The notes below the pieces were generated by a model. The model was not told where the DNA came from. It worked only from the letters and a program-made list of their open reading frames with translations, and ran no database searches. DNA of 32,000 nucleotides from an uncultured archaeon (lineage in GTDB: Archaea > Asgardarchaeota > Thorarchaeia > Thorarchaeales > Thorarchaeaceae), in assembly GCA_964648855.1 (NCBI GenBank), contig CAZYLT010000001.1, forward strand, positions 180,001 through 212,000. The letters are read 5' to 3'. Positions 5,120 to 32,000 of this stretch are shown piece by piece (positions within the stretch are counted from its first letter, which is position 1; each line of letters opens with the position of its first letter). The position numbers were made by a program, and so were the translations under genes.

Positions 5120-8100
5120 TTATTCTGCCGAGTCCTCTGACACATCCTCCTCACTTTCGAGTTCTTCCGAGGGGACGTCTTCATCTGATGGCAACTCACC
5201 ATCTACAACCTCCTCCTCGGTTGTTTCATCTTCAGTTGACTTGTCTTCATCTGAAGCTTCTTCGGTTTCTTCAACGTCCGATACTGCAGGCTCTTCCTCG
5301 ACAGGTTCTTTCTTGATGTCTTCTAGTTCTGTTCCCTCGTGTGTTGCCTCCTCCTGCACATCTTCCGCGTCCCACTCGAGCTCCTCTGCTTCATCCTCGT
5401 CCAGAGGTTCTTCTTCTGGGGGCGCCTCTTCCTCGAGGTTTTCTTCTTCTATAGCTTCTTCCTCTTCCATCATCGAGTCGAGTTCTTCTGAGAGCTCCTC
5501 CTCATAGTCGGTTGCTTCAATGTCTGCCATCTCTTCTCCCAGACCATCAATCTCGTCAAGGGCATCTAGCTCACCGAGCAATTCATCTGCCTCGCCGCCC
5601 AGTTCCTCGAATTCCTGCTCCGGGCTAACATCTATTGTTGGTGCTCCCATATCGAGTTCAGCAAGCCCAGGAGCCAAGAGATCGGATATGACCTCACCCA
5701 TGTTCTTGAGGCCTTCGACTTCTGCGCGGTCGCCATCCTCAATATCCTTGAGTGCGCCATTGATTTGCTTTATCTGGAAGGGTATTTTCCATCGCTGATA
5801 TCCAACAGCAATCGCACCAACTACCACAAAGATACCAGTCATGATGAGAATTGTTTGTAGGAGGGATACAGGGAGCCTTACGATTCCTAGTATGCCAATA
5901 GTCTGTTCTGAAATGGTAACCCTAATCACCTGTTCAGTTTGATTCCTGTACATTGGGGCTGAAGCTGAAGCCAATAGCTGATATGGCTCTGCCCTCACGT
6001 CTCCAATCTGGCTGCTCGTTAGTTCTATCACGTAGTGAGTTCCGTTGAATTCGAAATCACCTGCGGACAGAGTGAATTCAGTCGTGGGTGTTTGCAGCGT
6101 CAAACTGCTGATTGTTGATGGTCCAATAGGCGAGTCACTCGATATATCGAGATACTCTATTGCAATTAGGAAGGTGTCTCCTTCTTCTGCAACTACATCG
6201 GGAGCCACAAGGGACGTTTCCGAATAAATAGATAGAACAGGAGCCACAGATTGAGTCGTATAGTTCTGCAGAGTTGCTGATATATTCAAAGTGATTACAC
6301 CTGGTACTTCAGAAACATCAACCTCAGAAGGATTGAATGTCAATCTGTACATCTGACTGCTGCTCTGATACGTGGCAGTGTATGTCGTTCCTGCGAATTG
6401 CATGGTAATAGTTGCACCAGTCAGGCTGCCTGTGAGATCTACTTCTGTATCATCAATCTCATAGGTCAGCATGATATCGAGTCCGGTAGTTCTGTAGAAG
6501 ACCTCGTAAGAGAGGCTCTCTGGGTCGAGCGAAGTGTCGACAGGGAGAACAGTAACAGGTAGCTCAAGGTCTGGTATTGTGTAATTTTCATTGGCGACCT
6601 TCACGATCAGGGTATGGTCACCTGCAGGTACTTGGTCCGACGAAACCACTGCAGAGTAGTCATGGGAAGTCGGCTGATAGTTCAACAGATAGACTGTTGG
6701 GAATCCAGACCAAACATAGTAGACCGTGGCACCATCAATGCTCACATTGCCACCATAGATGTTGTTCACATTCACTCTGAGGTTGAATTCATTAGTCCAT
6801 TTTATTTCAACAGACTCGGGAGTTGTCAGTTCATCTCTGAAGATAGCTCCCTCAACAGGGACCACTGTCACATCAGTATCGTTTGTGTTATCAACAAAAT
6901 TTGGCATGGTGTATGTGAAGTCAAGGTTGTATGGATTTTCTGAGGCTGAGAACCATTCATCCGATTCGATAGTTCCCGTGAAGCTTCCATCGCCATTGTT
7001 ATCTAACTCCAAGCTCATTGTGCCCCAGCTGACCGTGACAATCGCATTCTCCCAAATTAGTCCACCATGACGGTCATCATAGAGATGCGCCGTAATGTCA
7101 AAGGAGGCAGACCAATTCACAGGGTCGATTGGGTCAATCACAAGAGAAGCATCTGTTTCCTGTACAAGAATAATCACTGTCGTGAAGTCATGCATCTCGA
7201 AGCCTAATTTAGTCATCTCTATTTGAATGACATAGACCGGTCCTTCGCCAAACACATTCATTCCCAAGCCACGAGTGTCAACAGTGAATCCATAGGTACC
7301 ATCGCCATAGTCGTTTGTGTCTACAATAGCGGTATCAAGGTCAACCAAGTAATATGATGCGAGGTCAGGTGATAATACTGGAGCGTTATCGAGTGTGTTG
7401 TTCCAGTAGAATCTAACCTCGAATACATCAGCATAGTACTTCTCATAGTAATCTAGTTCTAGTACTATTTCATTTGGCACCGCCAGTATTCTGACGAAGA
7501 TGGTCGTTGAATCTGAAGTTGCACCAGCCTTTGTGGCTACGATTTCAATCTCGTAGAGGTCCTCTTGAGGCACTGCATCATTGGCATCAAGGGATTTGTT
7601 ATAGATGCCACCACTGAAGTCATCTAAATCACCGCTCTGGTCGATAACTGATTCCAAGAACCAGTTGTAACTAACTGTGGCACCATCGACGGGTGCTCCA
7701 ATTGATTGGTCCAGCAGAAGGATTTCCAGGCTAAATGATTGTGTCCAGTATACTTCTAACGGATTCTCTGCTGAGCCATATTCCGCCTCAATGAACAATG
7801 GGACTCGGATATTAATGGTGAGAGGAACCATGTATGATTCATGATTGGATTTACTGAGATTGAGCTCAAATATGTATGTGCCAGAGTCGAAAGCTCCACC
7901 TACTGAAACAGTGTAGATTCCATTCCCCTCGTAGGTTAGAGATACTGTATCGTCCCATGTGTGAGTGAATGTGGCATCATCTAGCCCAGCATTGCCTGAG
8001 GTCCGAGTGTAGTTCACCTGATAGGTTGCAGAATCTAACCAATCGATGGTCTGCGAATCAGATCCTACAACCTCAAGATTTGTTGGTGCCCTAGATACAG

Positions 8101-11100
8101 TCAAGAAGTCAGCCAAAGCTCCTGTAGCTTCCTGATAGTTGACTTTTGAACAGGTGATTGTTACATTCCAATCACCCACAGGCAAGAGATCCTTGTTGAA
8201 GGTGTACGTGAATTGCTCCCCAATTTCGGACAAAGTTCGACTCACATTTAGATATGAAGTGCCAGCATCAGTGTACCATCTGATTGTCACAGATACTCCA
8301 CTCAGACCGGCATCAGTGTTGTTTCCAGGTAGATTGAAGACGTATGAAAATGTCAAGGAATGAGGTGTGGTATCCCAATCATAGTCAACTACACTCAAAT
8401 CTGTTACAAGCATCGGCACTTCTGAAATCTCTAATGAAATGGTAAAAGTCTGGTTGACATAGTTTCTCTTTTCTAGCGAGATGCTCATTGAGTAACTGCC
8501 CACCGGCAAGTCATTCAAGGCCGTAGCAGATAGCGAGTATGAACCATTTGCATTATCCACCAAGTCTCCTGAGTAGCTTGTGCCAATCACCAAGAAGGAA
8601 TATGTTCCAAGACCCGTCACATTCGCATCATTATCTGAGTCATATAACCAGAATAAGTACTCCGAATGAGTGTTGTAGTATTCGGCGATTGTACTGGTTT
8701 CTTTTCCAGCACTGGTTCTGGCGGGATTCACATCGATGTAGATAGTCATCGGCGATGGATCGTTATAACTGGCGCTGTCAGAGTGAGCTCTCACGGTCAT
8801 TACGTATTGACCATCGATGACATTGAGGCCCCACGCAGTGGCATTAATGACGATGCTGAAGTTAATGGAAGAAGTACTAGTTATCCAAGTGCCGCTCCCA
8901 GCCCAAGTATCTTCGAAATAGGTCACACCATCATAGCTGACAGAAATATTCAGCCATGTCTTCGTAGATATTTCGGAGGTTGTCGTTTCTCCATCCCTGT
9001 CATACCATCCGACGACTAGTCCAGAGTTGTTTGTATTCCAACGGATATTAACAATACTAAGAGTTGAATTCAATTCAGTGTAAGCATCGGGATATGCGGG
9101 CGTCGTTATGTTAATCCAGTTGAAGTACTCCCAATCATAATCCACCTTTGCTCCAAGTAGCTGTGCACTTTCATCACCTGAAACTACGGTAATATTGTAA
9201 GATACCGGGGAATAATATGGTGATGAGATATTTCCATGGATATAGTAGAATATTATCCAGCCAGTGCTGTTTGTTTTGCCCTGAGCAATAGGATTCAGTG
9301 AAGGTGTTCCATCCACGAGTGTTACATTTACGTCGGCATTGGATACGGGGTAGTCTTCACCTTGTTCAGTAGTGACCCTTATCCTTAGCTGGCTTATTGG
9401 TAGTTCAACAGTCTTTGATTCATATCCCTGAAGATCGTTGATTGTTTCGGTATCATTTAAGGCAGTAGGTGTATCTCCATAGAGATCATCTTTGGTTACC
9501 TCAATGCTCCAAGTACCGTTTACAATCCTATAGAATGTGAATTGACCTGAGGAGTTTGTCCATTTCGTGATTTGGTAGCCAGTTTCATTCTGATTATCGA
9601 TTACAACCATTGCATTGTCAACAGGGAGATCATCCCAACTCTCTACGTAGATATCGAGTGTGGTGAGAGGTAGTACCCAATCCGGATGTTCGAAGGATCC
9701 AGATGAGAACTCATCGACTGATAGAGACCAACTTCCAAACTTATCCATGTCCGAGTAGAGATAGCTATCAACAGGCCCATCATATCTAACAAAAACATTG
9801 TAGTCAGCAGCAGGCATTCTATAGAATCTCGCCCATCCGGTACTATTAGTTTCCTCGTAATGCAGGAATACATCTGGGCTGCTACCATTGGTAACACGGA
9901 CAGTAGTTGTATCATCCGGGGTTGCATCCATGGAATTGCCCATCAAATCCTCAAAGTGAAGACTGAAGCTCGCCATTTCCAGCGTGATTTCAATAGGTGT
10001 TACTGATCCAGTTATTGCATGGTCAGAAGTATTGGTCACCCAAATGGAACCAGATGGAGTCGGAGAAAGCCAGTTAGAAGCATCTATCCTCGTTCTCACT
10101 TCGTAGGTTGCATTTAGAAGGCCCTCGAATATTACCAGGCCGTTAGAATCGGTTACACCGGTTCGATTTCTGCCCTGTTCATCCAACCATAGCGTACTGT
10201 CTGTGGAATTGTGGAGTGTAACTTGTGCCCCTTCAACGGGGACTCCGTCTAGGTCAACAACAGTAATATCGAACTCGAATAAATGACGCTCATCGCCTTG
10301 TACAATGGCAAGACCATTCTCATCAGCCTCAGGCGTGTATGCAGGCACATGCCACCCGTATCCCGTATCGCTTGTTGGATTATAGGGCGAGGAGGTAGAG
10401 AATAATCCAAGATCAACTACTCCAATACTCGCATTGGATTCAATATGATAGAGTGACATACTTGAGGCGACAGGACGAAATGCTGCCATTCCGCCTGCAG
10501 GTATCTCAAGAGTCCCACCATTATATCCGGTAACCTTGACTTCTGCATTCTCCAAAGCCACAATCATGAACTTGTAGGAATTAATACCCCAGAGTTTGAA
10601 GGAAGAGCCGAATCGATGTCCTGAAGTAGTGGGTATCCAATCCCCTGCGTCTCTGGCATTTGTTGGGTCATAGAGACCTTCCACCATGAATGTATCTCCA
10701 GAATTGCGAGCCTTCAAGTGAAGAATGTCCTCTGGGTTAGTATCGCTTGCCGTTCCGGGATTGATTGATTGTGAGCTGTTGGCGGATATATCGAGATAAC
10801 CACCATATGACCATCCTGAGCCTGAATTTCTCCACCAGTCCACAATTATCGTGGTTTCTTCTAGGTTTGTGACTCGTGTTCTGTCCTTGGAGTGACCCAT
10901 GTCAATTGTATAGAACTCGTTTCCTGCAAGCCGACCATCAATTGCGGGATAAAACCCCCAGATATCTCTCGCATGTGACGCATCATCGTCACCGGCCCTG
11001 ATGGATACTGGCTTCGTTGAATTTACTTTCTTATAAGCAGTATAGAGAACATCTCCCTTGCTGATATACTCTCCCGCATCCAAAGTCACTGGCCAATCGG

Positions 11101-12136
11101 TATCTGATATTGACGTTTGATTATAGAATGCCCATCCGGACTCTGCGGAGCCAGATATGCTGGTAACCCAGACATCGGTGTCGTTCTCGTGAGCTTGAAT
11201 CCAGTACATTCCCTCATTTCTATCATCAAATCCTTCGACACCCCCGATGACAAAATGAGTTCCAGTCCCTTGGCTCATTTCATTTACCCCTGGGAACCAG
11301 TCATTCATTGCAGAATTGGAGCCCTCATCTCCTTGACCCATGCTGACAGCCATCGGAAAGTTAGAGTATATCGCATAATAACCATGGAATAGGGAATACG
11401 AGTAGCTACTTGGTTCATAGCGAGCAGCATCATATTGGTCAAGAGTGCCGTTTGGAACATTGCTTGGATACACGCTTCCGCTAGTTCCAGACCATCGGTC
11501 ATCAAGGTTCCTTGGATCGTCCCATGTCTTGCTTGAGGGGTCATACATCTCAATGAGGTAGTTGTTATCATCATAATACGAAACTAGACTCAGGAGAGAG
11601 AATGTGTAGCTCTTGTAGATGAATGGATAGAATTCAGGATAACTCACAGACCCGACATCTTCTTTGGCGTAATAGACATAGTAATTCTGCTCAGTTGCTC
11701 CCTCGGAAACATTGACCATAAAGCTGACCCTAGTTGAGAGAATGTAGTTGCCAGTTTCATCATAGGTAGTATTCCAAGTTTGGAATGGTAGCAGAGTCCA
11801 GTCGGGGTCGTTATAGTACGCCACGCGTATAGAATCACTGTAGCAATGACCCTCGACGAATGTGAGATACAGATGAACGGGAGAGAGGGTGCGAGAAGAA
11901 ATGCCTGGTTCTGTGAAATTGAAATAGCGTCTGTAGATATATGTGCTATTCCACCAATTTGCCTCGTCTTGAATGCCCGCAACTTCTAGATTACCATGAC
12001 GAATTTGTAGTGAATTGTCCGCATCTAGAACTGGATTCTGATTTACAGCATTAGTTGAAGGATTGCCCGTTGCCAGAGGAAGCAACAACACTATTGCAAG
12101 TGCTGCTAGTATGAGGAATTTAGTCGAACGCTTCAA
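5120..12136 (-). CDS. Giant type-I membrane/surface glycoprotein (2338 aa): signal peptide, DUF2341-like, IgGFc-binding-like, carboxypeptidase-regulatory-like and Ig-like repeats, one TM helix, acidic tail
   Basis: Signal MKRSTKFLILAALAIVLLLPLATG; WWNSTYIYRR; repeats such as DLDGVPVEGAQVTL...TDSNG; about 100-aa beta-rich repeats; many N-x-S/T sequons; TM LLQTILIMTGIFVVVGAIAVGY; E/D-rich C-terminus. The TTG start abuts the upstream TAG. Domain names were assigned by eye. Confidence 0.92.
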   Translation of the reverse strand: MKRSTKFLILAALAIVLLLPLATGNPSTNAVNQNPVLDADNSLQIRHGNLEVAGIQDEANWWNSTYIYRRYFNFTEPGISSRTLSPVHLYLTFVEGHCYSDSIRVAYYNDPDWTLLPFQTWNTTYDETGNYILSTRVSFMVNVSEGATEQNYYVYYAKEDVGSVSYPEFYPFIYKSYTFSLLSLVSYYDDNNYLIEMYDPSSKTWDDPRNLDDRWSGTSGSVYPSNVPNGTLDQYDAARYEPSSYSYSLFHGYYAIYSNFPMAVSMGQGDEGSNSAMNDWFPGVNEMSQGTGTHFVIGGVEGFDDRNEGMYWIQAHENDTDVWVTSISGSAESGWAFYNQTSISDTDWPVTLDAGEYISKGDVLYTAYKKVNSTKPVSIRAGDDDASHARDIWGFYPAIDGRLAGNEFYTIDMGHSKDRTRVTNLEETTIIVDWWRNSGSGWSYGGYLDISANSSQSINPGTASDTNPEDILHLKARNSGDTFMVEGLYDPTNARDAGDWIPTTSGHRFGSSFKLWGINSYKFMIVALENAEVKVTGYNGGTLEIPAGGMAAFRPVASSMSLYHIESNASIGVVDLGLFSTSSPYNPTSDTGYGWHVPAYTPEADENGLAIVQGDERHLFEFDITVVDLDGVPVEGAQVTLHNSTDSTLWLDEQGRNRTGVTDSNGLVIFEGLLNATYEVRTRIDASNWLSPTPSGSIWVTNTSDHAITGSVTPIEITLEMASFSLHFEDLMGNSMDATPDDTTTVRVTNGSSPDVFLHYEETNSTGWARFYRMPAADYNVFVRYDGPVDSYLYSDMDKFGSWSLSVDEFSSGSFEHPDWVLPLTTLDIYVESWDDLPVDNAMVVIDNQNETGYQITKWTNSSGQFTFYRIVNGTWSIEVTKDDLYGDTPTALNDTETINDLQGYESKTVELPISQLRIRVTTEQGEDYPVSNADVNVTLVDGTPSLNPIAQGKTNSTGWIIFYYIHGNISSPYYSPVSYNITVVSGDESAQLLGAKVDYDWEYFNWINITTPAYPDAYTELNSTLSIVNIRWNTNNSGLVVGWYDRDGETTTSEISTKTWLNISVSYDGVTYFEDTWAGSGTWITSTSSINFSIVINATAWGLNVIDGQYVMTVRAHSDSASYNDPSPMTIYIDVNPARTSAGKETSTIAEYYNTHSEYLFWLYDSDNDANVTGLGTYSFLVIGTSYSGDLVDNANGSYSLSATALNDLPVGSYSMSISLEKRNYVNQTFTISLEISEVPMLVTDLSVVDYDWDTTPHSLTFSYVFNLPGNNTDAGLSGVSVTIRWYTDAGTSYLNVSRTLSEIGEQFTYTFNKDLLPVGDWNVTITCSKVNYQEATGALADFLTVSRAPTNLEVVGSDSQTIDWLDSATYQVNYTRTSGNAGLDDATFTHTWDDTVSLTYEGNGIYTVSVGGAFDSGTYIFELNLSKSNHESYMVPLTINIRVPLFIEAEYGSAENPLEVYWTQSFSLEILLLDQSIGAPVDGATVSYNWFLESVIDQSGDLDDFSGGIYNKSLDANDAVPQEDLYEIEIVATKAGATSDSTTIFVRILAVPNEIVLELDYYEKYYADVFEVRFYWNNTLDNAPVLSPDLASYYLVDLDTAIVDTNDYGDGTYGFTVDTRGLGMNVFGEGPVYVIQIEMTKLGFEMHDFTTVIILVQETDASLVIDPIDPVNWSASFDITAHLYDDRHGGLIWENAIVTVSWGTMSLELDNNGDGSFTGTIESDEWFSASENPYNLDFTYTMPNFVDNTNDTDVTVVPVEGAIFRDELTTPESVEIKWTNEFNLRVNVNNIYGGNVSIDGATVYYVWSGFPTVYLLNYQPTSHDYSAVVSSDQVPAGDHTLIVKVANENYTIPDLELPVTVLPVDTSLDPESLSYEVFYRTTGLDIMLTYEIDDTEVDLTGSLTGATITMQFAGTTYTATYQSSSQMYRLTFNPSEVDVSEVPGVITLNISATLQNYTTQSVAPVLSIYSETSLVAPDVVAEEGDTFLIAIEYLDISSDSPIGPSTISSLTLQTPTTEFTLSAGDFEFNGTHYVIELTSSQIGDVRAEPYQLLASASAPMYRNQTEQVIRVTISEQTIGILGIVRLPVSLLQTILIMTGIFVVVGAIAVGYQRWKIPFQIKQINGALKDIEDGDRAEVEGLKNMGEVISDLLAPGLAELDMGAPTIDVSPEQEFEELGGEADELLGELDALDEIDGLGEEMADIEATDYEEELSEELDSMMEEEEAIEEENLEEEAPPEEEPLDEDEAEELEWDAEDVQEEATHEGTELEDIKKEPVEEEPAVSDVEETEEASDEDKSTEDETTEEEVVDGELPSDEDVPSEELESEEDVSEDSAE

Positions 12137-13554: not shown

Positions 13555-14736
13555 TTATTTATCTGTTCGTTCCAAAATAGCCACAATCATATTATTTCCG
13601 AATCCGCCAATATTGTGTGTAAACCCTCTACATGCATTAGGAACCTGCAGGGCTTTAGGAGCTCCATTTATGAGTTGTAGGAAAACATCATGGATCTGAG
13701 CAACACCGGTCGCACCAGTCGGATGGCCCCGTGACTTCAGGCCTCCGGTTGTGTTGATTGGCGTCTTACCGTCAACCTCAGCATCTCCCGATTTGATTAT
13801 TTCAATGCCTTGCCCCTTTTTAGCCAGCCCCACATCCTCGATGTCAATAATCTCCAAGATGGAGAATGCATCATGCAGTTCAAATACGTCTATGTCTTCA
13901 GGGCGCATCTTTGCCATTCTGAATGCATCTCTCGCTGCTTTCACCGTTGCCGATAGAGATGTAAGGGAATCTCTGTGCTGGACTGCCAGGAAATCGGTTG
14001 CATGTCCTATTCCCTTGATTGTAGCCGAGTCGCCGATGACACCCAACGTTCTTGCTTTATCAGCAGATGCTAGTACAAGGCTGGCTGCCCCGTCGCTAGT
14101 TGGACAACAATCAAAGAGAGTAAGGGGGCTCGATACTATGGGGCTTTCGTTCACCTTTTCCACAGTAATCTCTTTTTGAAAGTGGGCTAAGGAATTTCTC
14201 GCTCCGTTTCTATGAGCCTTTACAGGAACTAGGGATAACTCATTGCGAGTGAGTCCATAATCATGCAGATATCGGCAAGCAATTAGGGCCGCCAAGGAAG
14301 CTGGTGTTGCGCCGTAGCGGGTTTCATTCTCTCTCGATATCATCTTGGCGAGGATAGCGGATGCTCGTTCACGAGAAACCTCTGACATCTTCTCCACACC
14401 GATGACCAAGACTAATTCCGCTAAACCAGAACGAATCATAGCAAAACCAGCCTCGAATGCACTTGCACCTGATGAAGGTCCGCTCTCAATACGACTCCCC
14501 CCAGCTGGAACGATACCCAACTCATCAGCCATTAGAGTCGATAAATGACCTACTCCAGTAAATTCATCGGGATTCTGAGAAGCTACGAAGATATGGTCGA
14601 TTTTTTCTCCAGATGCCTGAGAGTCCTCGAGTGCCTTAATTGATGCCTCCTTGGCGAGGTCTACAATGGATTCATCCAAGCGCCCGAAATTGGTCATTCC
14701 AGCCCCAATGATATGAACAGGTTCCAACACAACCAC
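13555..14736 (-). CDS. Thiolase-superfamily protein (SCP2/archaeal type) lacking the catalytic cysteines
   Basis: IIGAGMTNFG, DCCPTSDGAA, ELHDAF, GGLKSRGHPTGATG and HNIGG motifs. The nucleophile loop reads ESGPSSG. Confidence 0.92.
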   Translation of the reverse strand: MVVLEPVHIIGAGMTNFGRLDESIVDLAKEASIKALEDSQASGEKIDHIFVASQNPDEFTGVGHLSTLMADELGIVPAGGSRIESGPSSGASAFEAGFAMIRSGLAELVLVIGVEKMSEVSRERASAILAKMISRENETRYGATPASLAALIACRYLHDYGLTRNELSLVPVKAHRNGARNSLAHFQKEITVEKVNESPIVSSPLTLFDCCPTSDGAASLVLASADKARTLGVIGDSATIKGIGHATDFLAVQHRDSLTSLSATVKAARDAFRMAKMRPEDIDVFELHDAFSILEIIDIEDVGLAKKGQGIEIIKSGDAEVDGKTPINTTGGLKSRGHPTGATGVAQIHDVFLQLINGAPKALQVPNACRGFTHNIGGFGNNMIVAILERTDK

Positions 14737-15291
14737 CTACTCAATGAGAATCAACAAATCACTGGGTACGACAGACATGCCTGGTTCCACATTTACTTCC
14801 ATAACTTTGCCAGACTTGGGCGCCTTCAGTTCGTTGAACATTTTCATGGCTTCAAGAATGCACAGCGTATCGCCTTCTTGTACTGCATCATTGACAACAA
14901 CATGGACTTCTGTTATTTTTCCAGGCATTGGAGGGTAGATCCCGTCAGGATTCTTGGCTCCTGCGGATGACGATGGCGAGACCGGAACACGGGTATCCGC
15001 CTTCTTTGCTCGTATCCACTCTAACGTATACTCTTCACCATCTAATTGGATTGATACAGTATTGCCAGACCGTTTTAGTACTTCCACTTGGTGATCCGTT
15101 GTCCTGTCATTCACGATCCAAACGCCATCTTCTCCCTTTGTAGGTTTCATGGTAAAGCTTTGGTCACCTATTTTGACAACAACCACTCCACCCTCATCCA
15201 ACAAGTCGACCTCGACATCATAAGTCACATCGGCTAGTTTGGCTTTGTATTCAGGACTCATTGTTGACCACTTGATACGTTCTCCTATCAT
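14737..15291 (-). CDS. Biotin carboxyl carrier protein (likely start ATG 15261)
   Basis: PPMPGKI...EAMKMFNELKAPKSGKV biotinyl domain, P/S/A-rich linker and beta-rich N-terminal domain. Confidence 0.93.
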   Translation of the reverse strand: MIGERIKWSTMSPEYKAKLADVTYDVEVDLLDEGGVVVVKIGDQSFTMKPTKGEDGVWIVNDRTTDHQVEVLKRSGNTVSIQLDGEEYTLEWIRAKKADTRVPVSPSSSAGAKNPDGIYPPMPGKITEVHVVVNDAVQEGDTLCILEAMKMFNELKAPKSGKVMEVNVEPGMSVVPSDLLILIE

Positions 15292-15350
15292 CAGGCATTT
15301 TAATTATGCCCTCATTTCATTTACCCTGTTTGATGTTGATATTGATTGTA

Positions 15351-16919
15351 CTATAATCGTCGTGTCTGTTCTCTTCTTCCAGAAACAGTCCATTGTGAGG
15401 CAGCTTTCGCCCATCTTCCTGCTGCCGCTTGAACAGGTTGCCTTTGTCCATCTTCGCGCCCATTTGCAGTCCACATATCTCCCGTACCAGAGGGGACAAT
15501 CGAGAACCCACCCCGTTTATTCATCATATGAAGGACCGATGCTATTATAGCAAGCTGGTCTTCGGGAGTCATTTCACCATGTTGCTTTCGTTTTGACTTT
15601 CGTACTAGAAAGTCAAGGGCGTATTGAGGATAGAGGGCGTAGGATATCTCATCGCGACGGTCATGTTCAATACCCTTCAGAGCCTCTCTCGCTTTAGGAA
15701 TCTCAGTTGAAAGCAAGCTCGCTGGGCGCTCCTCAAGGGTCTCTTCATCCCCTATGATTTTCTCTCTGATTTCGGGGTCTATTGGCGCTGGAGGTCGGCC
15801 ATATAAACCGCGAACGTACTGCTTTACTTCGTGCGGAACCATTTTGTATCGTTCGCCTGTTATAACGTTCATAGTTGCTTGAGTACCAACGATTTGAGAC
15901 GATGGCGTCACTAATGGTGGGTAACCTAAATCAGCTCGCACTCTTGGAACCTCTTGAAGGACCTCGTCATATCGGTCCAAGGCACCCTGTTCTCTAAGTT
16001 GATTGTCTAGATTTGATAGCATCCCTCCAGGAATCTGCCAGATCAGAACCTGAGGATTGACGCCCTTGAGACTGCCTTCAAATTCAGAATAATTCCGTCT
16101 GATATCTCTGAAGTAATCTGCAATCTCTGATAGGAGATTTATATCAAGACCCGTATCACGTTCTGTTCCTTTTAGAGCCTCGACAATAGATTCGACAGCC
16201 GGTTGAGAAGTTGCCATAGAGAGGGGGGAAATTGCACAGTCCACAACGTCAACGCCTGCCTCTGCCGCCTTCAAATATGCCATTGAGGCCATCCCACTGG
16301 TATAATGGGAGTGCAGCTGGATTGGGATGTCCAACTCGTCTTTCAACTTGGTAACTAGATCGTAAGCAGCAGTTGGCGTGATTAATCCTGCCATGTCTTT
16401 GATACAGATTGAGTCTGCATCTAAGGCGTACAAATCTTTGGCCTTCTCCACGAATCTCTCATTATTGTGGACGGGGCTGAGGGTATAACAGAAGCTTGCC
16501 TGAACATGTCCGCCTTCACGCTTTACGAACCGCATGGATGGTTCCATGTTTCTTACGTCGTTCAGCGCATCGAAAATCCGGAAAATATCTATGCCAGCTT
16601 TGACTGCCTCTTCTATGAATGCTTCGAGGACATCATCACTATATTGACGATACCCAACGATATTTGACCCTCTTAGTAGCATCTGGAATGGCGTCTTTGG
16701 CATTGCATCCTTTAGCTTCTCCACGCGTTCCCAAGGGTCCTCGTCCAAAAATCGCATCATGCTATCAAAAGTGGCTCCGCCCCACATTTCGAGTGAATAG
16801 TAGCCCACCTGGTCGATTGTTTCGCATATAGGTAGCATGTGCTCAGTACGCATCCGAGTCGCAATCAATGATTGATGTGCGTCACGAAGAGTAGTATCAG
16901 TAATCTTTAGTTTCGTCAT
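15351..16919 (-). CDS. Pyruvate/oxaloacetate carboxyltransferase (transcarboxylase 5S / OadA / PycB type) with no biotinyl domain and a C-terminal epsilon-like extension
   Basis: DTTLRDAHQSL, EMWGGATFD, FRIFDALND, CIKDMAG, HSH, QIPGGMLSN and PPLVTPSSQIVG motifs; no EAMKM. Confidence 0.93.
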   Translation of the reverse strand: MTKLKITDTTLRDAHQSLIATRMRTEHMLPICETIDQVGYYSLEMWGGATFDSMMRFLDEDPWERVEKLKDAMPKTPFQMLLRGSNIVGYRQYSDDVLEAFIEEAVKAGIDIFRIFDALNDVRNMEPSMRFVKREGGHVQASFCYTLSPVHNNERFVEKAKDLYALDADSICIKDMAGLITPTAAYDLVTKLKDELDIPIQLHSHYTSGMASMAYLKAAEAGVDVVDCAISPLSMATSQPAVESIVEALKGTERDTGLDINLLSEIADYFRDIRRNYSEFEGSLKGVNPQVLIWQIPGGMLSNLDNQLREQGALDRYDEVLQEVPRVRADLGYPPLVTPSSQIVGTQATMNVITGERYKMVPHEVKQYVRGLYGRPPAPIDPEIREKIIGDEETLEERPASLLSTEIPKAREALKGIEHDRRDEISYALYPQYALDFLVRKSKRKQHGEMTPEDQLAIIASVLHMMNKRGGFSIVPSGTGDMWTANGREDGQRQPVQAAAGRWAKAASQWTVSGRREQTRRL

Positions 16920-17057
16920 GGCGGAACATAGCTATGTCCACGGCGATAGTATATAGTAGTTCTGCTGCGTTCAGTTTTCAGAATGCTATCATGAGAAAGA
17001 AATCTTGCATTCCTAATTCCTTATGTAAGGAAACTGACAGAGAAGGAATGAAATATC

Positions 17058-17288
17058 TTGAATGATGAAAGACTGTGGGGCTACGAGGGATGCGGTTGTA
17101 TGTGGAACTTTTTCACTGACCGCAACACAGCGTATTCCAAGGCCGAAAAGAACACCGTCCGGGAAGTCACACTTGAGCGTGCATATGAGCTGGATAACAA
17201 ACGTAGGCAGGAACTTGGCTTCAATAAGATCACTATAGAGGATTTCAAGGAGTGCATTGACCGTCCGATGAATTGCAACGAACAATAG
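17058..17288 (+). CDS. Possible small hypothetical protein (76 aa, CGC motif)
   Basis: Fills an otherwise empty gap and has protein-like composition, but has a TTG start. A nearby ATG at 17048 with a ribosome-binding site is out of frame. Confidence 0.35.
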   Translation: MNDERLWGYEGCGCMWNFFTDRNTAYSKAEKNTVREVTLERAYELDNKRRQELGFNKITIEDFKECIDRPMNCNEQ

Positions 17289-17383
17289 CGTACATTTTCC
17301 GTTATCATCAAACTTCTCATGCATGAGAGATAATCTATTCCTGTTTTTGCTGCGGCTAAACTTCGTCTACCAATAGGCTTTAG

Positions 17384-18043
17384 ATGTGGTTGAAGTTGCG
17401 GAATCGTAGAAGCGGAAGTGACCTAATGAAACGCATTATCTTCAACCCTAATGTGTACAGATTTCTGTATTATGTAGACCGCCTATTTCCAGATAATGAG
17501 GTGCAGAAGTCAGTCCTAGATTGTGGAGCAGGCGGCAAAATACCTCCACTGGGTCTGTTACATCAACTTGGTTTTGATACATGCGGTATTGACATCTCGG
17601 AAAATCAGATTGAGAGGGCCAAGCGGTTTGAAGAGGAACATAATGTAGACCTCAATATACAGAAAGGAGATATGACAGACCTTCCCTTCGATGATGAGAG
17701 CTTTGGGTATGTCTACTCGCAGAATTCCATTTTCCATCTCACCAAACATAATACAGCAAAAGCCATGCAAGAAATGAAGAGGGTTCTAAGATCCCAAGGA
17801 TTTCTGTATGTGAATTTTTTGTCTGTTGAAGATCAAGGCTATGGAGAGGGAGAAGAAGTTAGACCGGGCGAATGGAGAGCTCTGGAGGATGGGGAACCCA
17901 CAGTTCATAGTTATTATCAGGATAATGAAGCAGACCAATATTTCATGGACGCAAGAATCATTCTCAAGGAAAAAAGGATTCTCGATTCTCGATTTCATAA
18001 TCGTAAGATGGTATATATTGAATACATTGCGAGAAAGGAATGA
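17384..18043 (+). CDS. Class I SAM-dependent methyltransferase (likely start ATG 17426)
   Basis: VLDCGAGG, GIDIS, GDMTDLPFDDESF and EMKRVLRSQG motifs. Confidence 0.92.
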   Translation: MWLKLRNRRSGSDLMKRIIFNPNVYRFLYYVDRLFPDNEVQKSVLDCGAGGKIPPLGLLHQLGFDTCGIDISENQIERAKRFEEEHNVDLNIQKGDMTDLPFDDESFGYVYSQNSIFHLTKHNTAKAMQEMKRVLRSQGFLYVNFLSVEDQGYGEGEEVRPGEWRALEDGEPTVHSYYQDNEADQYFMDARIILKEKRILDSRFHNRKMVYIEYIARKE

Positions 18044-18108
18044 GATTGACGTAATCCTCATTTTTCCGCTTCCTCTTTATTCATTAACTCAAATGCTGAT
18101 GTCAGCTC

Positions 18109-18636
18109 ATGGAAAAAGCAACGTTTGGCGGCGGATGTTTTTGGTGCGTAGAGGCCGTCTTTGAAAGAATGAAGGGCGTAAAATCAGTAGAGTCTGGATA
18201 TGCAGGTGGGCATGTTGAGAATCCGACATACCAGCAGGTCACCACTGGTAAGACCGGTCATGCTGAAGTTGCACAGATAGAGTATGACCCAGATGAAATT
18301 GGCTATGAAGAGCTTCTAGAGATTTTCTTCAAGACCCACGACCCAACAACTCTAAATCGACAGGGTAATGATGTGGGAACCCAGTATCGCTCGATTATCC
18401 TTTATCATAACGAAGAGCAAAAAGACGTAGCTGAAAAAGTCAAGGCCAGACTAGAAGAGAGTGGAGAATACAAGCAGCCAATCGTAACCGAGATTAAACC
18501 GCTTGGCACCTTCTATGAAGCAGAAGATTACCATCAGGATTACTACAAGAATAATCCAAACCAAGCATACTGCAGGATTGTTATTGCTCCCAAGCTAGAA
18601 AAGGCTGAGAAGAAGTTCAGCTTGAAATTGAAATGA
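18109..18636 (+). CDS. msrA: Peptide methionine sulfoxide reductase A
   Basis: [36 protein letters not shown] and AEDYHQDY motifs. Confidence 0.97.
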
Positions 18637-18749
18637 GCCCTCTAAAAGCCCATCTATTAGATTCTAGAGCATCTAGATAGCCCCAAAAATTACGCAATTA
18701 GTATTGCTACGTCGGACAGATTAGTTAATAGTCAGCTAGATACGGCTAA

Positions 18750-18819
18750 AATGAGCCTAGAAATGGAAGGTTTCCAAAATGCAAACCTTGGCTAAGTGAA
18801 GATTTCTAGTAGGCTCATT
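18750..18819. other. Nested inverted repeat between the convergent msrA and carboxyltransferase genes
   Basis: AATGAGCCTAGAAAT (18750-18764) pairs with ATTTCTAG-T-AGGCTCATT (18802-18819). Inner AAGGTTT (18767-18773) pairs with AAACCTT (18783-18789). Confidence 0.5.
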
Positions 18820-18865
18820 GTCCATTCATTGGGGGGACTATGATGAAACACAGATATTCTCAAGG

Positions 18866-20458
18866 TTAGAGGGGAATATTGCCATGCTTTTTGGGAGGTC
18901 GGGTTTGTCGTTTGGTTTCCAGCATATCTAGACCCCTACAAATCAAAGGTCGGGTTTCATGGGGAAATATGACCTTGTCAATGTAGCCCAATCCCGCTGC
19001 AACATAGGGGTTCGCGAATTTCTCGCGATATTCCTTTACTAGTTCTTCTCGCTTTGCTTCCTTGTCTTCTGCCTCAGCAATCTCTTTTCTGAAGATGATG
19101 TTAATTGCACCCTCTGGCCCCATGACTGCAATCTCAGCTGTTGGCCATGCATAAACCAAATCTGCCCCTATGTGCCTTGATGACATCACATCAAAAGCAC
19201 CGCCATATCCCTTGCGAGTGACAATCGTAATCAATGGCACCGTTGCTTCTGCGAACGCATAGAGAATCTTTGCTCCGTGCCTGATAATCCCTCCCCACTC
19301 TTGTTGGGTGCCCGGTAGATAGCCCGGAACGTCCATGAATGTGATGACGGGGATATTGAAGGCATCGCAGAATCTAACGAATCTGGAGCATTTGTCAGAT
19401 GCGTTGATATCGAGTGTTCCTGCTAGATGAGCAGGATTGTTGCCCACAATACCCACCGAGCGTCCATCAAATCGAGCAAATCCAACTATCATGTTCTTTG
19501 CAAAGTGTTCATGAACCTCGAAGAATTCGCCATTATCAACAAGCTTTCTTACCAGGTCACGCATGTCATATGGCTTGTTTGGGTCATTAGGTACTAGCTC
19601 ATCTATTGATTCATCTACATCATCTGGGGCATGCCCAGTTTCCATGCGAGGAGGATCCTCCATATTGTTGCTAGGAATGAAGGATAGTAGGGTTCTAATC
19701 TGGTCGAAACAGTGCTCTTCGTCTTCACTGGCAAAATGTGCGACACCACTAGTGCTATTGTGCGTCATAGCACCACCCAGCTCCATTTTTGTCACCTTCT
19801 CTCCCGTGACGGTTTCAATGACCTGTGGGCCCGTAATGAACATATAGGCAAGGTCTTTGACCATCAGTGTAAAGTCAGTCACTGCAGGACTATATACAGC
19901 ACCGCCAGCACATGGGCCTAAGATGGCTGATATCTGAGGGATAACTCCACTGGCATGAGTGTTCCTTCGAAATATGTTTGCATATGAAACAAGGGATTTG
20001 ATACCCTCTTGGATTCTAGCCCCTGCACCATCATTAAGACCAACGAGGGGAGCACCAGCTGCCATTGCGAGGTCCATGATTTTGCACATCTTCTCTCCAT
20101 ACATCTCAGACAGAGAGCCGCCAAATACGGTAAAATCCTGACTAAAAATGAAGACCTTCCTACCGTTGATAGTCCCATAGCCAGTGACCACACCGTCCCC
20201 CAAAGGCTTCCTCTCATCCATGCCAAATTCTGTTTCCCTGTGGACAACAAATTCATCAATCTCAACAAAGGAATCAGGGTCCATCAGGCTGTCTATCCGT
20301 TCCCTGGCTGTTAGCTTTCCTTTTTCATGTTGGCGTTCAATCCGCTTTTCACCACCGCCAAGCATGGCCTTCTCTCTCATTCTTCGCAGCTCATCAAATT
20401 TGTCGTCAGTCATCTTCGACGCAACCTCTGCTCTATTCTTAGAAGGGCATCCCCTCAT
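18866..20458 (-). CDS. Acyl-CoA carboxyltransferase beta subunit (PccB/MmdA/12S family; likely start ATG 20413)
   Basis: GGGEKRIERQHEKGKLTARERI, QDFTVFGGS, GARIQEG, GPCAGGAVYSPA, DVPGYLPG and KKHGNIPL motifs. Confidence 0.96.
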   Translation of the reverse strand: MRGCPSKNRAEVASKMTDDKFDELRRMREKAMLGGGEKRIERQHEKGKLTARERIDSLMDPDSFVEIDEFVVHRETEFGMDERKPLGDGVVTGYGTINGRKVFIFSQDFTVFGGSLSEMYGEKMCKIMDLAMAAGAPLVGLNDGAGARIQEGIKSLVSYANIFRRNTHASGVIPQISAILGPCAGGAVYSPAVTDFTLMVKDLAYMFITGPQVIETVTGEKVTKMELGGAMTHNSTSGVAHFASEDEEHCFDQIRTLLSFIPSNNMEDPPRMETGHAPDDVDESIDELVPNDPNKPYDMRDLVRKLVDNGEFFEVHEHFAKNMIVGFARFDGRSVGIVGNNPAHLAGTLDINASDKCSRFVRFCDAFNIPVITFMDVPGYLPGTQQEWGGIIRHGAKILYAFAEATVPLITIVTRKGYGGAFDVMSSRHIGADLVYAWPTAEIAVMGPEGAINIIFRKEIAEAEDKEAKREELVKEYREKFANPYVAAGLGYIDKVIFPHETRPLICRGLDMLETKRQTRPPKKHGNIPL

Positions 20459-20518
20459 CGTTTTGAATGTTGTGCCGTTCGAAAAATATGCCCACTACCC
20501 GTAATGGCTGAAGAGAAT

Positions 20519-21385
20519 CTATGCATCGTTCATATAGGATATTTTGGCAAATCGAGCGAGATTTTTCCGTTTCTTCGCCTCTTGAACAGTCATTCCAACC
20601 AGTTCAAAACCCAGCTCTTGAGATGTCTGATCTATCCAGGTATCGCGGATATCGCGTGCCATAATGCTCGCAGCGGCGACAGCAATAACATCCTCTGCGG
20701 CCGGTTTCTGAATGAGTTCAATGGAATTCAAGTCAATTTCTCGTTCTAATCTCAATCGAGCCTTTGCCTGTGCAAATTCGTCGATTACTACCTTGATTTC
20801 TGAATCTTCTCGTCGGGCTTCAAGCTTCCTGTAGGCTTGAGATATAGCCTTTGCATGTGCCCAAGCTAACAAGTCATTGAGATTCTTTCCTTCAGCTCTC
20901 ATTTCCTTGAGTCGCTTCTCGAACGTATCAGGCGGAATCAATACGGATTCGATTGCTAGGCTGTTTCTTTCAATATCGTATGCTCTGTTCCCAATCTGAC
21001 GCGGGGTCAATTCTTTGCTATCTTGGACGCCTAGTGCTCTGAGTTCTTTGGATTGCTCTGGAGAGAGGGCTACTGCACAAACGACCAGCGGACCCAGCCA
21101 TTCACCCTTCCCAGCTTCATCAGAACCAATCACGGTTTTTCCTTCATCTGCAAAATCCATCTCCCTCAAGACCTTTCGCAGCAGCTCTATTGCCCCAACT
21201 GTATTTGCCACAACGGAACCTGTGGTGTATCCGATTATCACCCCACCGGCGTAAGCAATACGGAATACCTCATGTTTCCCCTTGGGGCGTCTTGCAAAAG
21301 TATCATCCATATCGAGTAGTGTTACTCGTACTTCATCTAAGCGGTCTTCAGGTATTCTTGCTGCGAATGGGTCCAACGTTTTCAA
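20519..21385 (-). CDS. rnhC: Ribonuclease HIII
   Basis: IGSDEAGKGEWLGPLVV, GVQDSKEL, IDEF and AAEDVIAVAAASIMAR (Glu as the fourth acid, HIII type). N-terminal TBP-like segment HEVFRIAYAGGVIIGYTTGSVV. The TTG start overlaps the birA TGA. Confidence 0.8.
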   Translation of the reverse strand: MKTLDPFAARIPEDRLDEVRVTLLDMDDTFARRPKGKHEVFRIAYAGGVIIGYTTGSVVANTVGAIELLRKVLREMDFADEGKTVIGSDEAGKGEWLGPLVVCAVALSPEQSKELRALGVQDSKELTPRQIGNRAYDIERNSLAIESVLIPPDTFEKRLKEMRAEGKNLNDLLAWAHAKAISQAYRKLEARREDSEIKVVIDEFAQAKARLRLEREIDLNSIELIQKPAAEDVIAVAAASIMARDIRDTWIDQTSQELGFELVGMTVQEAKKRKNLARFAKISYMNDA

Positions 21386-22179
21386 CTCCCCTCATGCTGG
21401 ATATGAACAATTTCTCCCGCTCGAACTCGTCGAATTCGGTCATTTTCATCTCTTACCTCTAGTGAACCATCAATACCAACGCCGACTGCCGTCCCATTCC
21501 AAGTTTCATGGGCATCTTGAACTAGAACATCTCTACCGATTGTGATACATAACGCTCTAAATTCCCTGATGATGGAGTCGTAAGAATCTTCCCTTGACAC
21601 ATTGGCTAATCTCTTGTCTGCATTATTGATAATCCCGGCAATAAGTAGTTCAATTGAGGTTGGGTAACCGAGCTCCATCTGAATCGAAGTTGTCGATTTC
21701 TGCAGTTCTTGGGGAAAATCATCCTCATTCACATTTTGATTTATTCCTACACCAAGTATAACTCCTCGAATTTGATTTCTCACTGTGACTATCTCTGAAA
21801 GAATTCCACCAAGTTTCCGCTCATTTACAATCAGATCGTTGGGCCATTTCAATCCAACATCAATATCGAACAATCCGCTAATCGCTTCTGCACAGGCACA
21901 ACCCATGAGAAGAGATAACAAAGGAAGCTCGTGACTTGCATTCTCAGGTTTTAGAATAATGGACATGTATAGGCTGCCTGCGGGAGAGTGCCATTTTCTA
22001 TCATAACGCCCTCTTCCTCTTTCTTGGTTTTTGGCAACCACAATGGTGCCCTCTTTTGCGTGTTTCTGGAGCATTTCCTTTGCAACCTTGTTTGTTGAAT
22101 CGAGAGAATCGAATACTATTAGGTCCGGGTCAATATAACTTATTTCGAGTTCAGATTTGATTAAATAGCTGTCAAGCAT
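21382..22179 (-). CDS. birA: Biotin-protein ligase (no N-terminal HTH)
   Basis: DSTN, QERGRGRYDRKWHSP, KWPND, KLGGIL and GVGIN motifs. Confidence 0.96.
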   Translation of the reverse strand: MLDSYLIKSELEISYIDPDLIVFDSLDSTNKVAKEMLQKHAKEGTIVVAKNQERGRGRYDRKWHSPAGSLYMSIILKPENASHELPLLSLLMGCACAEAISGLFDIDVGLKWPNDLIVNERKLGGILSEIVTVRNQIRGVILGVGINQNVNEDDFPQELQKSTTSIQMELGYPTSIELLIAGIINNADKRLANVSREDSYDSIIREFRALCITIGRDVLVQDAHETWNGTAVGVGIDGSLEVRDENDRIRRVRAGEIVHIQHEGS

Positions 22180-29591: not shown

Positions 29592-30002
29592 CTATTCTTC
29601 GGGCTTTTCACAAAGTTCAATCAACACACCATGTGTAGATTTTGGATGAACAAACGCTACCTGCTTGCCCCGTGCTCCTTTCCTTGGCTCAGTATCTATT
29701 ACCTTCAAATTGGCCAAACGATGAGCCTCAAGAGTTTCTCCAATCGATTCTACATCAAGTGCTATGTGATGAATTCCTTCACCGTATTTGTCAATGAACT
29801 TCGCTACTGTTCCAGATTCGTCAAGAGGTTCGACGAGCTCAATTGCACTCTCGCCAATTCCAAGGAATGCAACTCTGACCTGCTGTGCTTCAACGGTTTC
29901 TTCTCCGCGAAACTCCAGCCCCAAAACATCTCTGTAATATGGCAAGACTTCTTCAATACTCTCTACAGCAATGGCAATGTGGTCAATCTTTGTTTGTTTC
30001 AT
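29592..30002 (-). CDS. mce: Methylmalonyl-CoA epimerase
   Basis: IDHIAIAV, IELVEP, GEGIHHIA and FVHPKSTHGVLIEL motifs; adjacent to the mutase gene. Confidence 0.95.
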   Translation of the reverse strand: MKQTKIDHIAIAVESIEEVLPYYRDVLGLEFRGEETVEAQQVRVAFLGIGESAIELVEPLDESGTVAKFIDKYGEGIHHIALDVESIGETLEAHRLANLKVIDTEPRKGARGKQVAFVHPKSTHGVLIELCEKPEE

Positions 30003-30015
30003 TTCTCATCATTCT

Positions 30016-31695: not shown

Positions 31696-32000
31696 TACTC
31701 CCTATGCTTCACAAGGAATTTGGTAATCAGTCGTTCAGCCACTGTATATGGGTCTTCTGACCGCGATGCAATCTTTTTGATTGCATTTTCGTATTCTGGA
31801 CTACCACGGAGCTTGGTAAGCAGCTCCAATGTCAGCTTGTACTCCATCAGCTGCTCCAGTTCTTCTTGACTTCGCTTTAGTCCTTTGTCTGCCATTCTTC
31901 CGCTGGTCTTGAGATACTCAATGTGTTCTTCAATCTTATCAACAAGTTTAGGTACCCCCTCACCAGTCCTAGCATTTGTCAGAACTACAGGAGGACGCCA
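31695..32000 (-). CDS. meaB: MeaB/ArgK GTPase chaperone, C-terminal part (runs off the right edge)
   Basis: Frame open from 32000: [30 protein letters not shown]...DPYTVAERL. Its TAG overlaps the mutase GTG by 1 nt. Confidence 0.85.

Follow-up and report, generated by a model that had tools for sequence, protein, structure and literature searches.

A 32,000-nucleotide stretch of contig CAZYLT010000001.1 (G000:C1:180001-212000; referred to here in its full length as the window) from an uncultured archaeon of the Thorarchaeaceae (Thor) carries genes for a 12S-like acyl-CoA carboxyltransferase, a 5S-like pyruvate/oxaloacetate carboxyltransferase, and a separate biotin carboxyl carrier protein (BCCP), which together probably constitute an ATP-independent methylmalonyl-CoA:pyruvate carboxyltransferase (i.e., a transcarboxylase of the EC 2.1.3.1 type). 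The genome examined is a metagenome-assembled genome (MAG) of 3.11 Mb in 62 contigs (94.6% complete, 4.75% contaminated). It encodes two biotin-dependent carboxyltransferases and one carrier, and neither an ATP-dependent biotin carboxylase nor a sodium pump subunit was found in it; transfer of a carboxyl group from one transferase to the other is thus the only closed biotin cycle available. ATP-free carboxyl transfer in an Asgard archaeon had been proposed in an earlier note on this DNA, and the lack of partner genes, the conserved gene order, and the proximity of methylmalonyl-CoA mutase genes make that proposal a likely one.

Gene content of the candidate transcarboxylase

The earlier note had listed a stand-alone pyruvate carboxyltransferase, a separate biotin carrier, a PccB/12S-type subunit, and the biotin-protein ligase BirA, with genes for an epimerase, a mutase, and MeaB nearby. 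All of these were recovered on the minus strand with the corresponding domain matches, and the epimerase/mutase/MeaB block (29592-32000) lies 9.1 kb from the 12S-like gene:

18866-20458, minus strand: 12S-like acyl-CoA carboxyltransferase (PccB/MmdA type), 530 amino acids (aa); Pfam Carboxyl_trans, 9.8e-200
15351-16919, minus strand: 5S-like pyruvate/oxaloacetate carboxyltransferase, 522 aa; HMGL-like and PYC_OADA domains, no biotinyl domain
15354-15557, minus strand: residues 455-522 of the 5S-like protein, forming its C-terminal tail; contains the helix EDQLAIIASVLH and W-x3-GR motifs
14737-15291, minus strand: BCCP, open reading frame (ORF) of 184 aa; Biotin_lipoyl, 3e-17
14992-15261, minus strand: carrier residues 11-100, an all-beta N-terminal domain built from hairpin repeats of the form 'x-V-x-V-(D/N)-G-x-x-Y-x-V-E'
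21382-22179, minus strand: BirA biotin-protein ligase, 265 aa, no helix-turn-helix domain; TIGR00121, 2e-59; BPL_LplA_LipB and BPL_C domains
29592-30002, minus strand: methylmalonyl-CoA epimerase candidate, glyoxalase fold, 136 aa; Glyoxalase_4, 1.4e-22; adjoins the mutase gene
30016-31695, minus strand: methylmalonyl-CoA mutase large subunit, 559 aa; MM_CoA_mutase, 2.2e-234
31695-32000, minus strand: MeaB GTPase, C-terminal part only, as the gene runs past the edge of the window; covers positions 209-266 of the Pfam MeaB profile (2.3e-9)

Profile searches identified the 12S-like gene as the sole Carboxyl_trans gene and the 5S-like gene as the sole PYC_OADA gene of the genome, each in a single copy. 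The carrier is the only one of the biotin type, the remaining Biotin_lipoyl matches being two E2-size proteins and a GcvH-size protein. Given one such carrier in this genome, we infer from the gene count that it serves both transferases.

This composition corresponds to that of a transcarboxylase in three respects: the 12S/PccB-type acyl-CoA carboxyltransferase matches the Carboxyl_trans profile over its full length, the pyruvate/oxaloacetate carboxyltransferase is fused to neither a biotin carboxylase nor a biotinyl domain, and searches of the genome and of its family revealed no ATP-dependent biotin carboxylase partner. A two-subunit pyruvate carboxylase would include a PycA biotin carboxylase, which was not found, and the BCCP is here a separate ORF. 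Of the subunits of an acyl-CoA (propionyl-CoA) carboxylase, the beta type is present and the alpha (biotin carboxylase) subunit was not found in the genome. The membrane beta subunit of the sodium-pumping decarboxylases (OAD_beta, PF03977) had no match in the genome or in 40 relatives.

Distribution of biotin carboxylase and OadB genes

The earlier note had reported no biotin carboxylase or sodium pump beta subunit (OadB) in the window, and this holds for the entire genome, in which Biotin_carb_C, Biotin_carb_N, and OAD_beta had no match; the same searches were positive in control genomes. The biotin carboxylase search succeeded in 13 of 14 control genomes and in 52 other Asgard genomes. Two weak matches to CPSase_L_D2 (ATP-grasp) were rejected as biotin carboxylase candidates, as they correspond to SucC (the succinyl-CoA synthetase beta subunit) and an ADP-forming acyl-CoA synthetase.

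The family of this genome (family f1) was represented by 24 relatives from 16 genera, 22 of which encode the 5S-like protein and 21 the 12S-like protein; none of the 24 had a match for biotin carboxylase or for OadB. We also searched 201 evenly drawn Asgard genomes. The 5S-like gene was detected in 60 genomes and biotin carboxylase in 52, and only a single genome (G048) contained both. The remaining 59 of the 60 genomes with the 5S-like gene, all of them MAGs except for two closed ones, had neither biotin carboxylase nor OadB. At the family level, biotin carboxylase was detected in 0 of 43 Thor-family (f1), 0 of 19 f12, and 0 of 3 f13 genomes. The two closed, single-contig genomes (G036 and G046, from one other Asgard family) contain the cluster without biotin carboxylase and OadB. 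A biotin carboxylase or OadB encoded elsewhere in the genome as an obligate partner had been named in the earlier note as the finding that would speak against its reading, and the whole-genome search proposed there thus came out negative, both here and in 59 of 60 Asgard carriers. Because the relatives, all but one of the carriers in the phylum-wide sample, and the closed genomes show the same absence, an assembly gap is an unlikely explanation for it.

G048 (230 contigs, 9% contamination) is also the only one of the 201 genomes with an OadB match (470 bits) above the cut-off. Its transcarboxylase block, a biotin carboxylase-BCCP pair, and OadB are located on three contigs (C11, C12, and C21; loci L130-L132), and the OadB contig has no carboxyltransferase gene neighbors.

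Gene order and phylogeny of the two carboxyltransferases

In 16 Thor genomes, the 12S-like gene is followed by a variable insert of 0-10 kb and then by the 5S-like, BCCP, and thiolase-like genes, often with BirA and an RNase H-like gene upstream; in one of them (G018), the 12S, 5S, BCCP, and thiolase-like genes are contiguous. BirA lies upstream of the 12S-like gene in Thor genomes; in families f12, f13, and f18, the two are immediate neighbors, in the order BirA-12S-5S(-BCCP). The synteny of the 12S, 5S, and BCCP genes spans four Asgard families. Neither an ATP-grasp gene nor a membrane protein gene is conserved in the Thor clusters among the related loci compared. Asgard genomes with biotin carboxylase carry another cluster, PccB-BCCP-biotin carboxylase, which is the ordinary layout of an acyl-CoA carboxylase.

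The mutase is encoded in 65 of the 66 genomes of cluster-bearing families (43/43 in f1, 18/19 in f12, 3/3 in f13, and 1/1 in f18), and in many genomes of f1, f12, and f13 it is found on the same contig, approximately 5-12 kb from the 12S/5S genes. There are two paralogs of the mutase large subunit in this genome and in most Thor relatives, located here at window positions 30016-31695 and, outside the window, at G000:C1:225599-227143.

To collect relatives outside the Asgard archaea, we searched 1.84 billion representatives and scanned genome contigs; the contig scan gave at least 80 named loci, which represent a sample rather than a census. The 5S-like homologs occur in three types of gene context: (i) a fused carboxyltransferase-BCCP beside biotin carboxylase, i.e., pyruvate carboxylase (Pseudomonas, Nitrospira, methanogens, and Clostridia); (ii) a carboxyltransferase with OadB, i.e., the sodium pump type (gammaproteobacteria and Lachnospiraceae); and (iii) a stand-alone carboxyltransferase whose neighbors are a small carrier and a 12S-type gene (about 60% identity) but not biotin carboxylase (Bacillota, Anaerolineae, a Peptococcaceae MAG, and one contig with a fused carboxyltransferase-BCCP). 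Clostridial relatives occur in operons of 12S-like, BCCP, OadB, and OadA genes. In the Bathyarchaeia loci L070 (JACAEI010000016.1) and L071 (CAZCSF010000013.1), the order is biotin carboxylase-BCCP...BirA-12S-5S-BCCP, with two carriers and an ATP module, and the same transferases may there serve both ATP-dependent carboxylation and transcarboxylation.

Phylogenies of both carboxyltransferase subunits had been suggested in the earlier note. In a FastTree tree of the 5S-like proteins, which includes no experimentally characterized transcarboxylase 5S subunit, the Thor proteins group with those of G048, Anaerolineae, and family f12 (support, 0.85-0.96), and the sister clade comprises stand-alone, 12S-linked homologs from Peptococcaceae and other Bacillota. 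The Thor proteins do not group with PycB linked to biotin carboxylase or with OadA linked to OadB, and the methanogen PycB and Bathyarchaeia homologs form a different clade. A representative considered as a stand-in for the propionibacterial 5S subunit (P0176) was set aside as not specifically 5S-like. The tree of the 12S-like proteins is less resolved, with the Thor, f12, and G048 proteins still placed together.

Features of the three subunits

The alignment of the 12S-like protein with Streptomyces coelicolor PccB extends over the full length, and both Gly-Gly (GG oxyanion) motifs are retained. In a ranking of PDB entries, S. coelicolor PccB (1xnv; 710 bits) precedes the Propionibacterium shermanii 12S subunit (1on3; 600 bits), and the score against the mmdA model TIGR01117 (853 bits) falls under its cut-off of 998.8. 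The equivalent of PccB Asp422 is D423, and Thor proteins keep Asp at this position, which is occupied by Val in family f12 and by Ile or Leu in Bacillota homologs. Asp at this position reportedly favors propionyl/methylmalonyl-CoA (Diacovich et al. 2004) and is therefore counted here in favor of these substrates.

Against the PycB domain model, the 5S-like protein reaches 745 bits. It comes near the OadA equivalog cut-offs (705 versus 718 bits and 690 versus 756.5 bits), does not reach the PycB equivalog cut-offs (PRK14041 and PRK14042), and scores 540 bits against the 5S equivalog (NCBIfam NF008984, PRK12330), for which the cut-off is 827. The corresponding PDB ranking is PycB (5ks8; 547 bits), OadA (2nx9; 522 bits), and the P. 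shermanii 5S subunit (1rqb; 434 bits). The residues of the metal and carbamyl-lysine motifs (D13, K174, H203, and H205) are invariant in all 20 aligned 5S-like sequences.

Behind its catalytic part, the 5S-like protein has a tail consisting of an 'E-x-x-A-A-I-x-A'-type helix followed by 'S-P-W-x-x-A-G-R'. This tail is kept in Thor genomes, three other Asgard families, Bathyarchaeia, and Anaerolineae, with W510 invariant and G514 and R515 nearly so. It has no Pfam or NCBIfam match at E<=10, including ACC_epsilon and OAD_gamma, and no transmembrane segment; hidden Markov models thus give no support to the label 'AccE/PccX-like' for it. In hhalign, a profile of the tails gave a weak alignment to a separately encoded ORF of 90 aa in a Bacillota 12S-BCCP-5S operon (E = 9.5e-5; probability, 59%). 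This ORF itself scores 25.4 bits against OAD_gamma (PF04277), just under the cut-off of 27; the tail profile had no match in the small ORF of locus L048. The tail may be a docking module, and the weak alignment faintly suggests a gamma/epsilon-like peptide fused to the C terminus of the 5S-like subunit.

The carrier likely starts at M11, which gives a protein of about 174 aa, and its orthologs begin with 'MS.EY'. The biotinyl-lysine is K150 (codon at 14842-14844), within a motif (E147-A148-M149-K150-M151; EAMKM) that is invariant in 17 of 17 aligned orthologs. The earlier note had likened the N terminus YKAKLADVTYDVEVD to those of 1.3S/MmdC carriers, and it does match the N termini of short carriers from bacterial 12S-BCCP-5S operons, e.g., KYIIKVNGTPYEVEVEE. 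These short carriers have a single 'V-x-V-(D/N)-G-x-x-Y-x-V-E' hairpin, which is repeated in the N-terminal domain of approximately 90 aa of the Thor carrier and is also visible in Anaerolineae orthologs. The only match of this domain among Pfam and NCBIfam models at E<=10 is a subthreshold one to PCC_BT (E = 0.035), and phmmer aligned carrier residues 63-184 with the segment ahead of the BCCP domain in the human propionyl-CoA carboxylase alpha subunit. In an AlphaFold2 model, the biotinyl domain is confident and the N-terminal domain is all-beta with eight strands at low confidence (predicted local distance difference test [pLDDT], around 45-60). A complex prediction for the 5S-like protein and this domain, run without controls, gave a score of 0.02, which speaks neither for nor against binding.

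Alternative explanations

It is conceivable that these genes encode the transferase and carrier parts of an ATP-dependent propionyl-CoA carboxylase and a two-subunit pyruvate carboxylase, the biotin carboxylase being missing from the assemblies or too divergent to be recognized. The public annotation of the 5S-like protein ('pyruvate carboxylase subunit B'), the best PDB and NCBIfam matches (PycB for the 5S-like and PccB for the 12S-like protein), the biotin carboxylase-BCCP pair beside the same block in Bathyarchaeia, and a completeness of 94.6% are all compatible with this explanation. However, three Pfam models specific for or containing biotin carboxylase yielded only SucC and the ADP-forming acyl-CoA synthetase, no ATP-grasp gene is conserved in the cluster, and biotin carboxylase was found in none of the 43 Thor-family, 19 f12, and 3 f13 genomes (two of them closed) by a search that detected it in 52 other Asgard genomes and 13 of 14 controls, which renders a hidden ATP-dependent partner extremely unlikely. 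We regard as very unlikely that the proteins act as biotin-dependent decarboxylases of oxaloacetate and/or methylmalonyl-CoA, either with an unrecognized pump subunit or with loss of carboxybiotin without energy conservation. Such an activity would accord with the near-cut-off scores of the 5S-like protein against OadA (705 versus 718 and 690 versus 756.5) and of the 12S-like protein against mmdA (853 versus 999), with the weak likeness of the 5S tail to small OAD_gamma-like ORFs, and with the clostridial operons that combine 12S-like, BCCP, OadB, and OadA genes. Nevertheless, OAD_beta was not found in this genome, and a contaminated genome is the only one of the 201 in the Asgard sample in which it exceeded its cut-off; the cluster contains no conserved membrane protein; the tail has neither a transmembrane segment nor a Pfam OAD_gamma match; and two transferases with a single carrier fit transfer better than two wasteful decarboxylations.

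A transcarboxylase might also act on other substrates, such as malonyl-CoA/acetyl-CoA or another acyl-CoA on the 12S side and another 2-oxoacid on the 5S side. The sequence by itself leaves substrate choice undecided, the position equivalent to Asp422 is Val in f12 and Ile or Leu in Bacillota homologs, the cluster has a thiolase-fold protein linked to it and acyl-CoA dehydrogenase genes nearby, and the P. shermanii transcarboxylase also accepts acetyl-CoA. This possibility is nonetheless unlikely in view of the Asp at the PccB specificity position in Thor proteins, the linkage to the mutase, epimerase, and MeaB genes in three families, and the invariant motifs of the pyruvate site.

Several observations weigh against a methylmalonyl-CoA:pyruvate transcarboxylase in this archaeon. 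Two opposite-strand genes split the 12S-like gene from the 5S-BCCP pair, and the three genes are therefore not one transcript in this genome. The genome is a MAG, for which absence is never proof. In Bathyarchaeia, the BirA-12S-5S-BCCP block is 3-4 kb from a biotin carboxylase-BCCP pair, which indicates that such proteins can coexist, and may work, with an ATP module there. A classical Ldh_1-type malate dehydrogenase was not found in the genome, so that the step between oxaloacetate and malate rests on a candidate Ldh_2 protein. Finally, the 5S-like protein scores higher against PycB and OadA than against 5S, and the 12S-like protein higher against PccB than against 12S; by NCBIfam cut-offs and PDB ranking, the two subunits are not orthologs of propionibacterial 5S and 12S. 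This lowers the claim of membership in the propionibacterial family and not that of working like a transcarboxylase, because all these transferases catalyze the same half-reactions and the available partners decide the net reaction.

Comparison with known systems

The transcarboxylase of Propionibacterium freudenreichii subsp. shermanii (EC 2.1.3.1; 12S, 5S, and 1.3S subunits) has the same three-part composition as the Thor set: a Carboxyl_trans transferase, a TIM-barrel pyruvate carboxyltransferase without a biotinyl domain, a small carrier with an AMKM motif, and no ATP module. We take the N terminus of the 1.3S carrier to contain the same 'V-x-V-N/D-G-x-x-Y-x-V-E/D' motif as the Thor carrier. 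The Thor subunits differ in being nonorthologous (434 bits for the 5S-like protein compared with 547 for PycB, and 600 for the 12S-like protein compared with 710 for PccB), in the beta-rich N-terminal domain of approximately 90 aa in place of a short peptide, in the conserved 68-aa tail of the 5S-like protein, and in their archaeal host.

PycA/PycB of methanogens and Methylobacillus (PDB 5ks8) provide the best match of the 5S-like catalytic domain (547 bits) and carry out the same pyruvate half-reaction. PycB, however, has a fused BCCP and needs PycA, whereas the Thor BCCP is separate and PycA was not found; the methanogen PycB clade is also separate from the Thor proteins in the tree. Syntrophic propionate oxidizers of the Pelotomaculum type resemble the Thor genome in the metabolic setting, a methylmalonyl-CoA pathway that includes mutase, epimerase, and succinyl-CoA synthetase; one of the closest relatives of the Thor 5S-like protein is a Peptococcaceae homolog adjoining a 12S-type gene. 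Syntrophic propionate-oxidizing bacteria also possess a biotin carboxylase for fatty acid synthesis, whereas none was found in this Thor genome. The mmc cluster of Pelotomaculum comprises mmcH (12S type), mmcI ('epsilon'), mmcJ (carrier), and mmcL (5S) (review, PMC8892533). The small epsilon/gamma-like component, a separate gene there, would, if homologous to the tail, be fused to the C terminus of the 5S-like protein in Thor, as the weak profile alignment suggests, and the Thor genes extend across 8 kb and are interrupted by unrelated genes.

The idea of an Asgard transcarboxylase is not new and was already named in 2020. Imachi et al. (2020; PMC7015854) included the biotin carrier of methylmalonyl-CoA transcarboxylase and its ligase among conserved Asgard propionate fermentation genes, with trees, and Zhang et al. 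(2021; PMC8163825) listed methylmalonyl-CoA carboxyltransferase for Hermodarchaeota. As far as the available parts of these articles go, the enzyme corresponds to the Thor set in gene families, phylum, and functional reading, and it receives a brief mention as a marker of either propionate fermentation or alkane degradation; those parts contain no account of the phylum-wide lack of biotin carboxylase and OadB, the synteny, the bacterial affinity of the 5S-like protein, or the docking domains.

Proposed mechanism and metabolic context

We infer complex assembly, substrates, and flux direction of the putative transcarboxylase from gene content, motifs, synteny, and partner absence. BirA would biotinylate the carrier, and the 12S-like subunit would move the carboxyl group of (S)-methylmalonyl-CoA to carrier-bound biotin; the swinging carrier would then bring it to the 5S-like subunit, where pyruvate would be converted to oxaloacetate. 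The overall transfer would be reversible. We tentatively suggest that the 5S tail and the beta-rich N-terminal domain of the carrier may stand in for the short N-terminal peptide by which the Propionibacterium complex is held together.

The enzyme would couple the mutase, epimerase, and MeaB to the C4 branch in a Wood-Werkman-like cycle, running from pyruvate through oxaloacetate, succinate, succinyl-CoA, and methylmalonyl-CoA to propionyl-CoA. Elsewhere, the genome encodes a class I fumarase adjoining an FrdA-like gene, a second SdhA-like protein, SucC, the ADP-forming acyl-CoA synthetase, an Ldh_2-type dehydrogenase (the malate dehydrogenase candidate), and malic enzyme. We slightly favor the propionate-forming direction over propionyl-CoA oxidation, although the latter is equally allowed by the gene content. 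The fumarate reductase-like flavoprotein frame adjoining the fumarase (G000:C2:156191-156559; 1182 aa) contains one in-frame TAG; this could be a recoded stop codon or a sequencing error, or the frame could consist of two adjacent genes.

A broader proposal, which is possible yet rather doubtful, is that a single transcarboxylase of distinct build carries all of the biotin metabolism of Thorarchaeota and several other Asgard families; it would have a fused gamma/epsilon-like tail, a carrier domain of four beta-hairpins that expands the 1.3S N-terminal peptide, and a 5S-like gene exchanged with bacteria. The occurrence of the 5S-like gene in both Anaerolineae and Peptococcaceae points to such an exchange.

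Neighboring genes

The interval 14737-22179 also includes unrelated genes, i.e., the RNase HII/III-like gene, a plus-strand S-adenosylmethionine (SAM) methyltransferase gene with a plus-strand msrA, and a 103-aa ORF, the last three located between the 12S-like and 5S-like genes. The 103-aa ORF (17013-17324) was considered as a part of the system and dropped, since it matches no family and lacks a counterpart in the 20 related loci. Two features flank or interrupt the set:

20519-21385, minus strand: RNase HII/III-like protein
13555-14736, minus strand: thiolase-fold protein; Thiolase_N and Thiolase_C_1 domains

The thiolase-like ORF begins at 14736, abutting the end of the carrier ORF at 14737, and it follows the BCCP gene in 16 of 16 Thor loci. 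Its nucleophile Cys motif is replaced by 'E(S/T)GPS' in all 11 aligned Thor orthologs, and the Cys-less protein might act as a scaffold or a retro-aldolase or have another role. At 820-1137 (minus strand), a DUF35/ChsH2-type OB-fold zinc-ribbon protein is encoded beside an acyl-CoA dehydrogenase (1-735, minus strand); DUF35 proteins usually partner with archaeal thiolases, and this one may have a bearing on the Cys-less thiolase, which is encoded 13 kb from it. A 2338-aa ORF (5120-12136, minus strand) matches only immunoglobulin-like and CarboxypepD_reg-type domains, around residues 620-900, with no family match in the rest, and probably encodes a giant surface protein. The small GTPase encoded at 3944-4825 (minus strand) belongs to the Arf/Roc family and is extended by about 120 aa at its N terminus; it is followed by three ORFs without a family (3375-3941, 2977-3354, and 1590-2993, the last of which is coiled-coil-like), a typical Asgard 'eukaryotic signature' neighborhood.

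Implications

If our reading is right, the public labels 'pyruvate carboxylase subunit B,' 'oxaloacetate decarboxylase alpha,' and 'propionyl-CoA carboxylase' mislead metabolic reconstructions by implying a sodium pump or CO2 fixation at the expense of ATP. What this analysis adds to the literature is modest and consists of the near-exclusion of the 5S-like gene and biotin carboxylase across the phylum, the synteny, the bacterial affinity of the 5S-like protein, and the unusual putative docking regions. A functioning transcarboxylase would save these Asgard archaea one ATP per turn of C3/C4 acid interconversion. Under the broader proposal, and if there is no other carboxylating route, it would be their only biotin-dependent route from pyruvate to oxaloacetate, tying anaplerosis to the turnover of methylmalonyl-CoA. 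The presence of a Wood-Werkman-type propionate/succinate route would, in turn, bear on fermentative and syntrophic models of the archaeal ancestor of eukaryotes.

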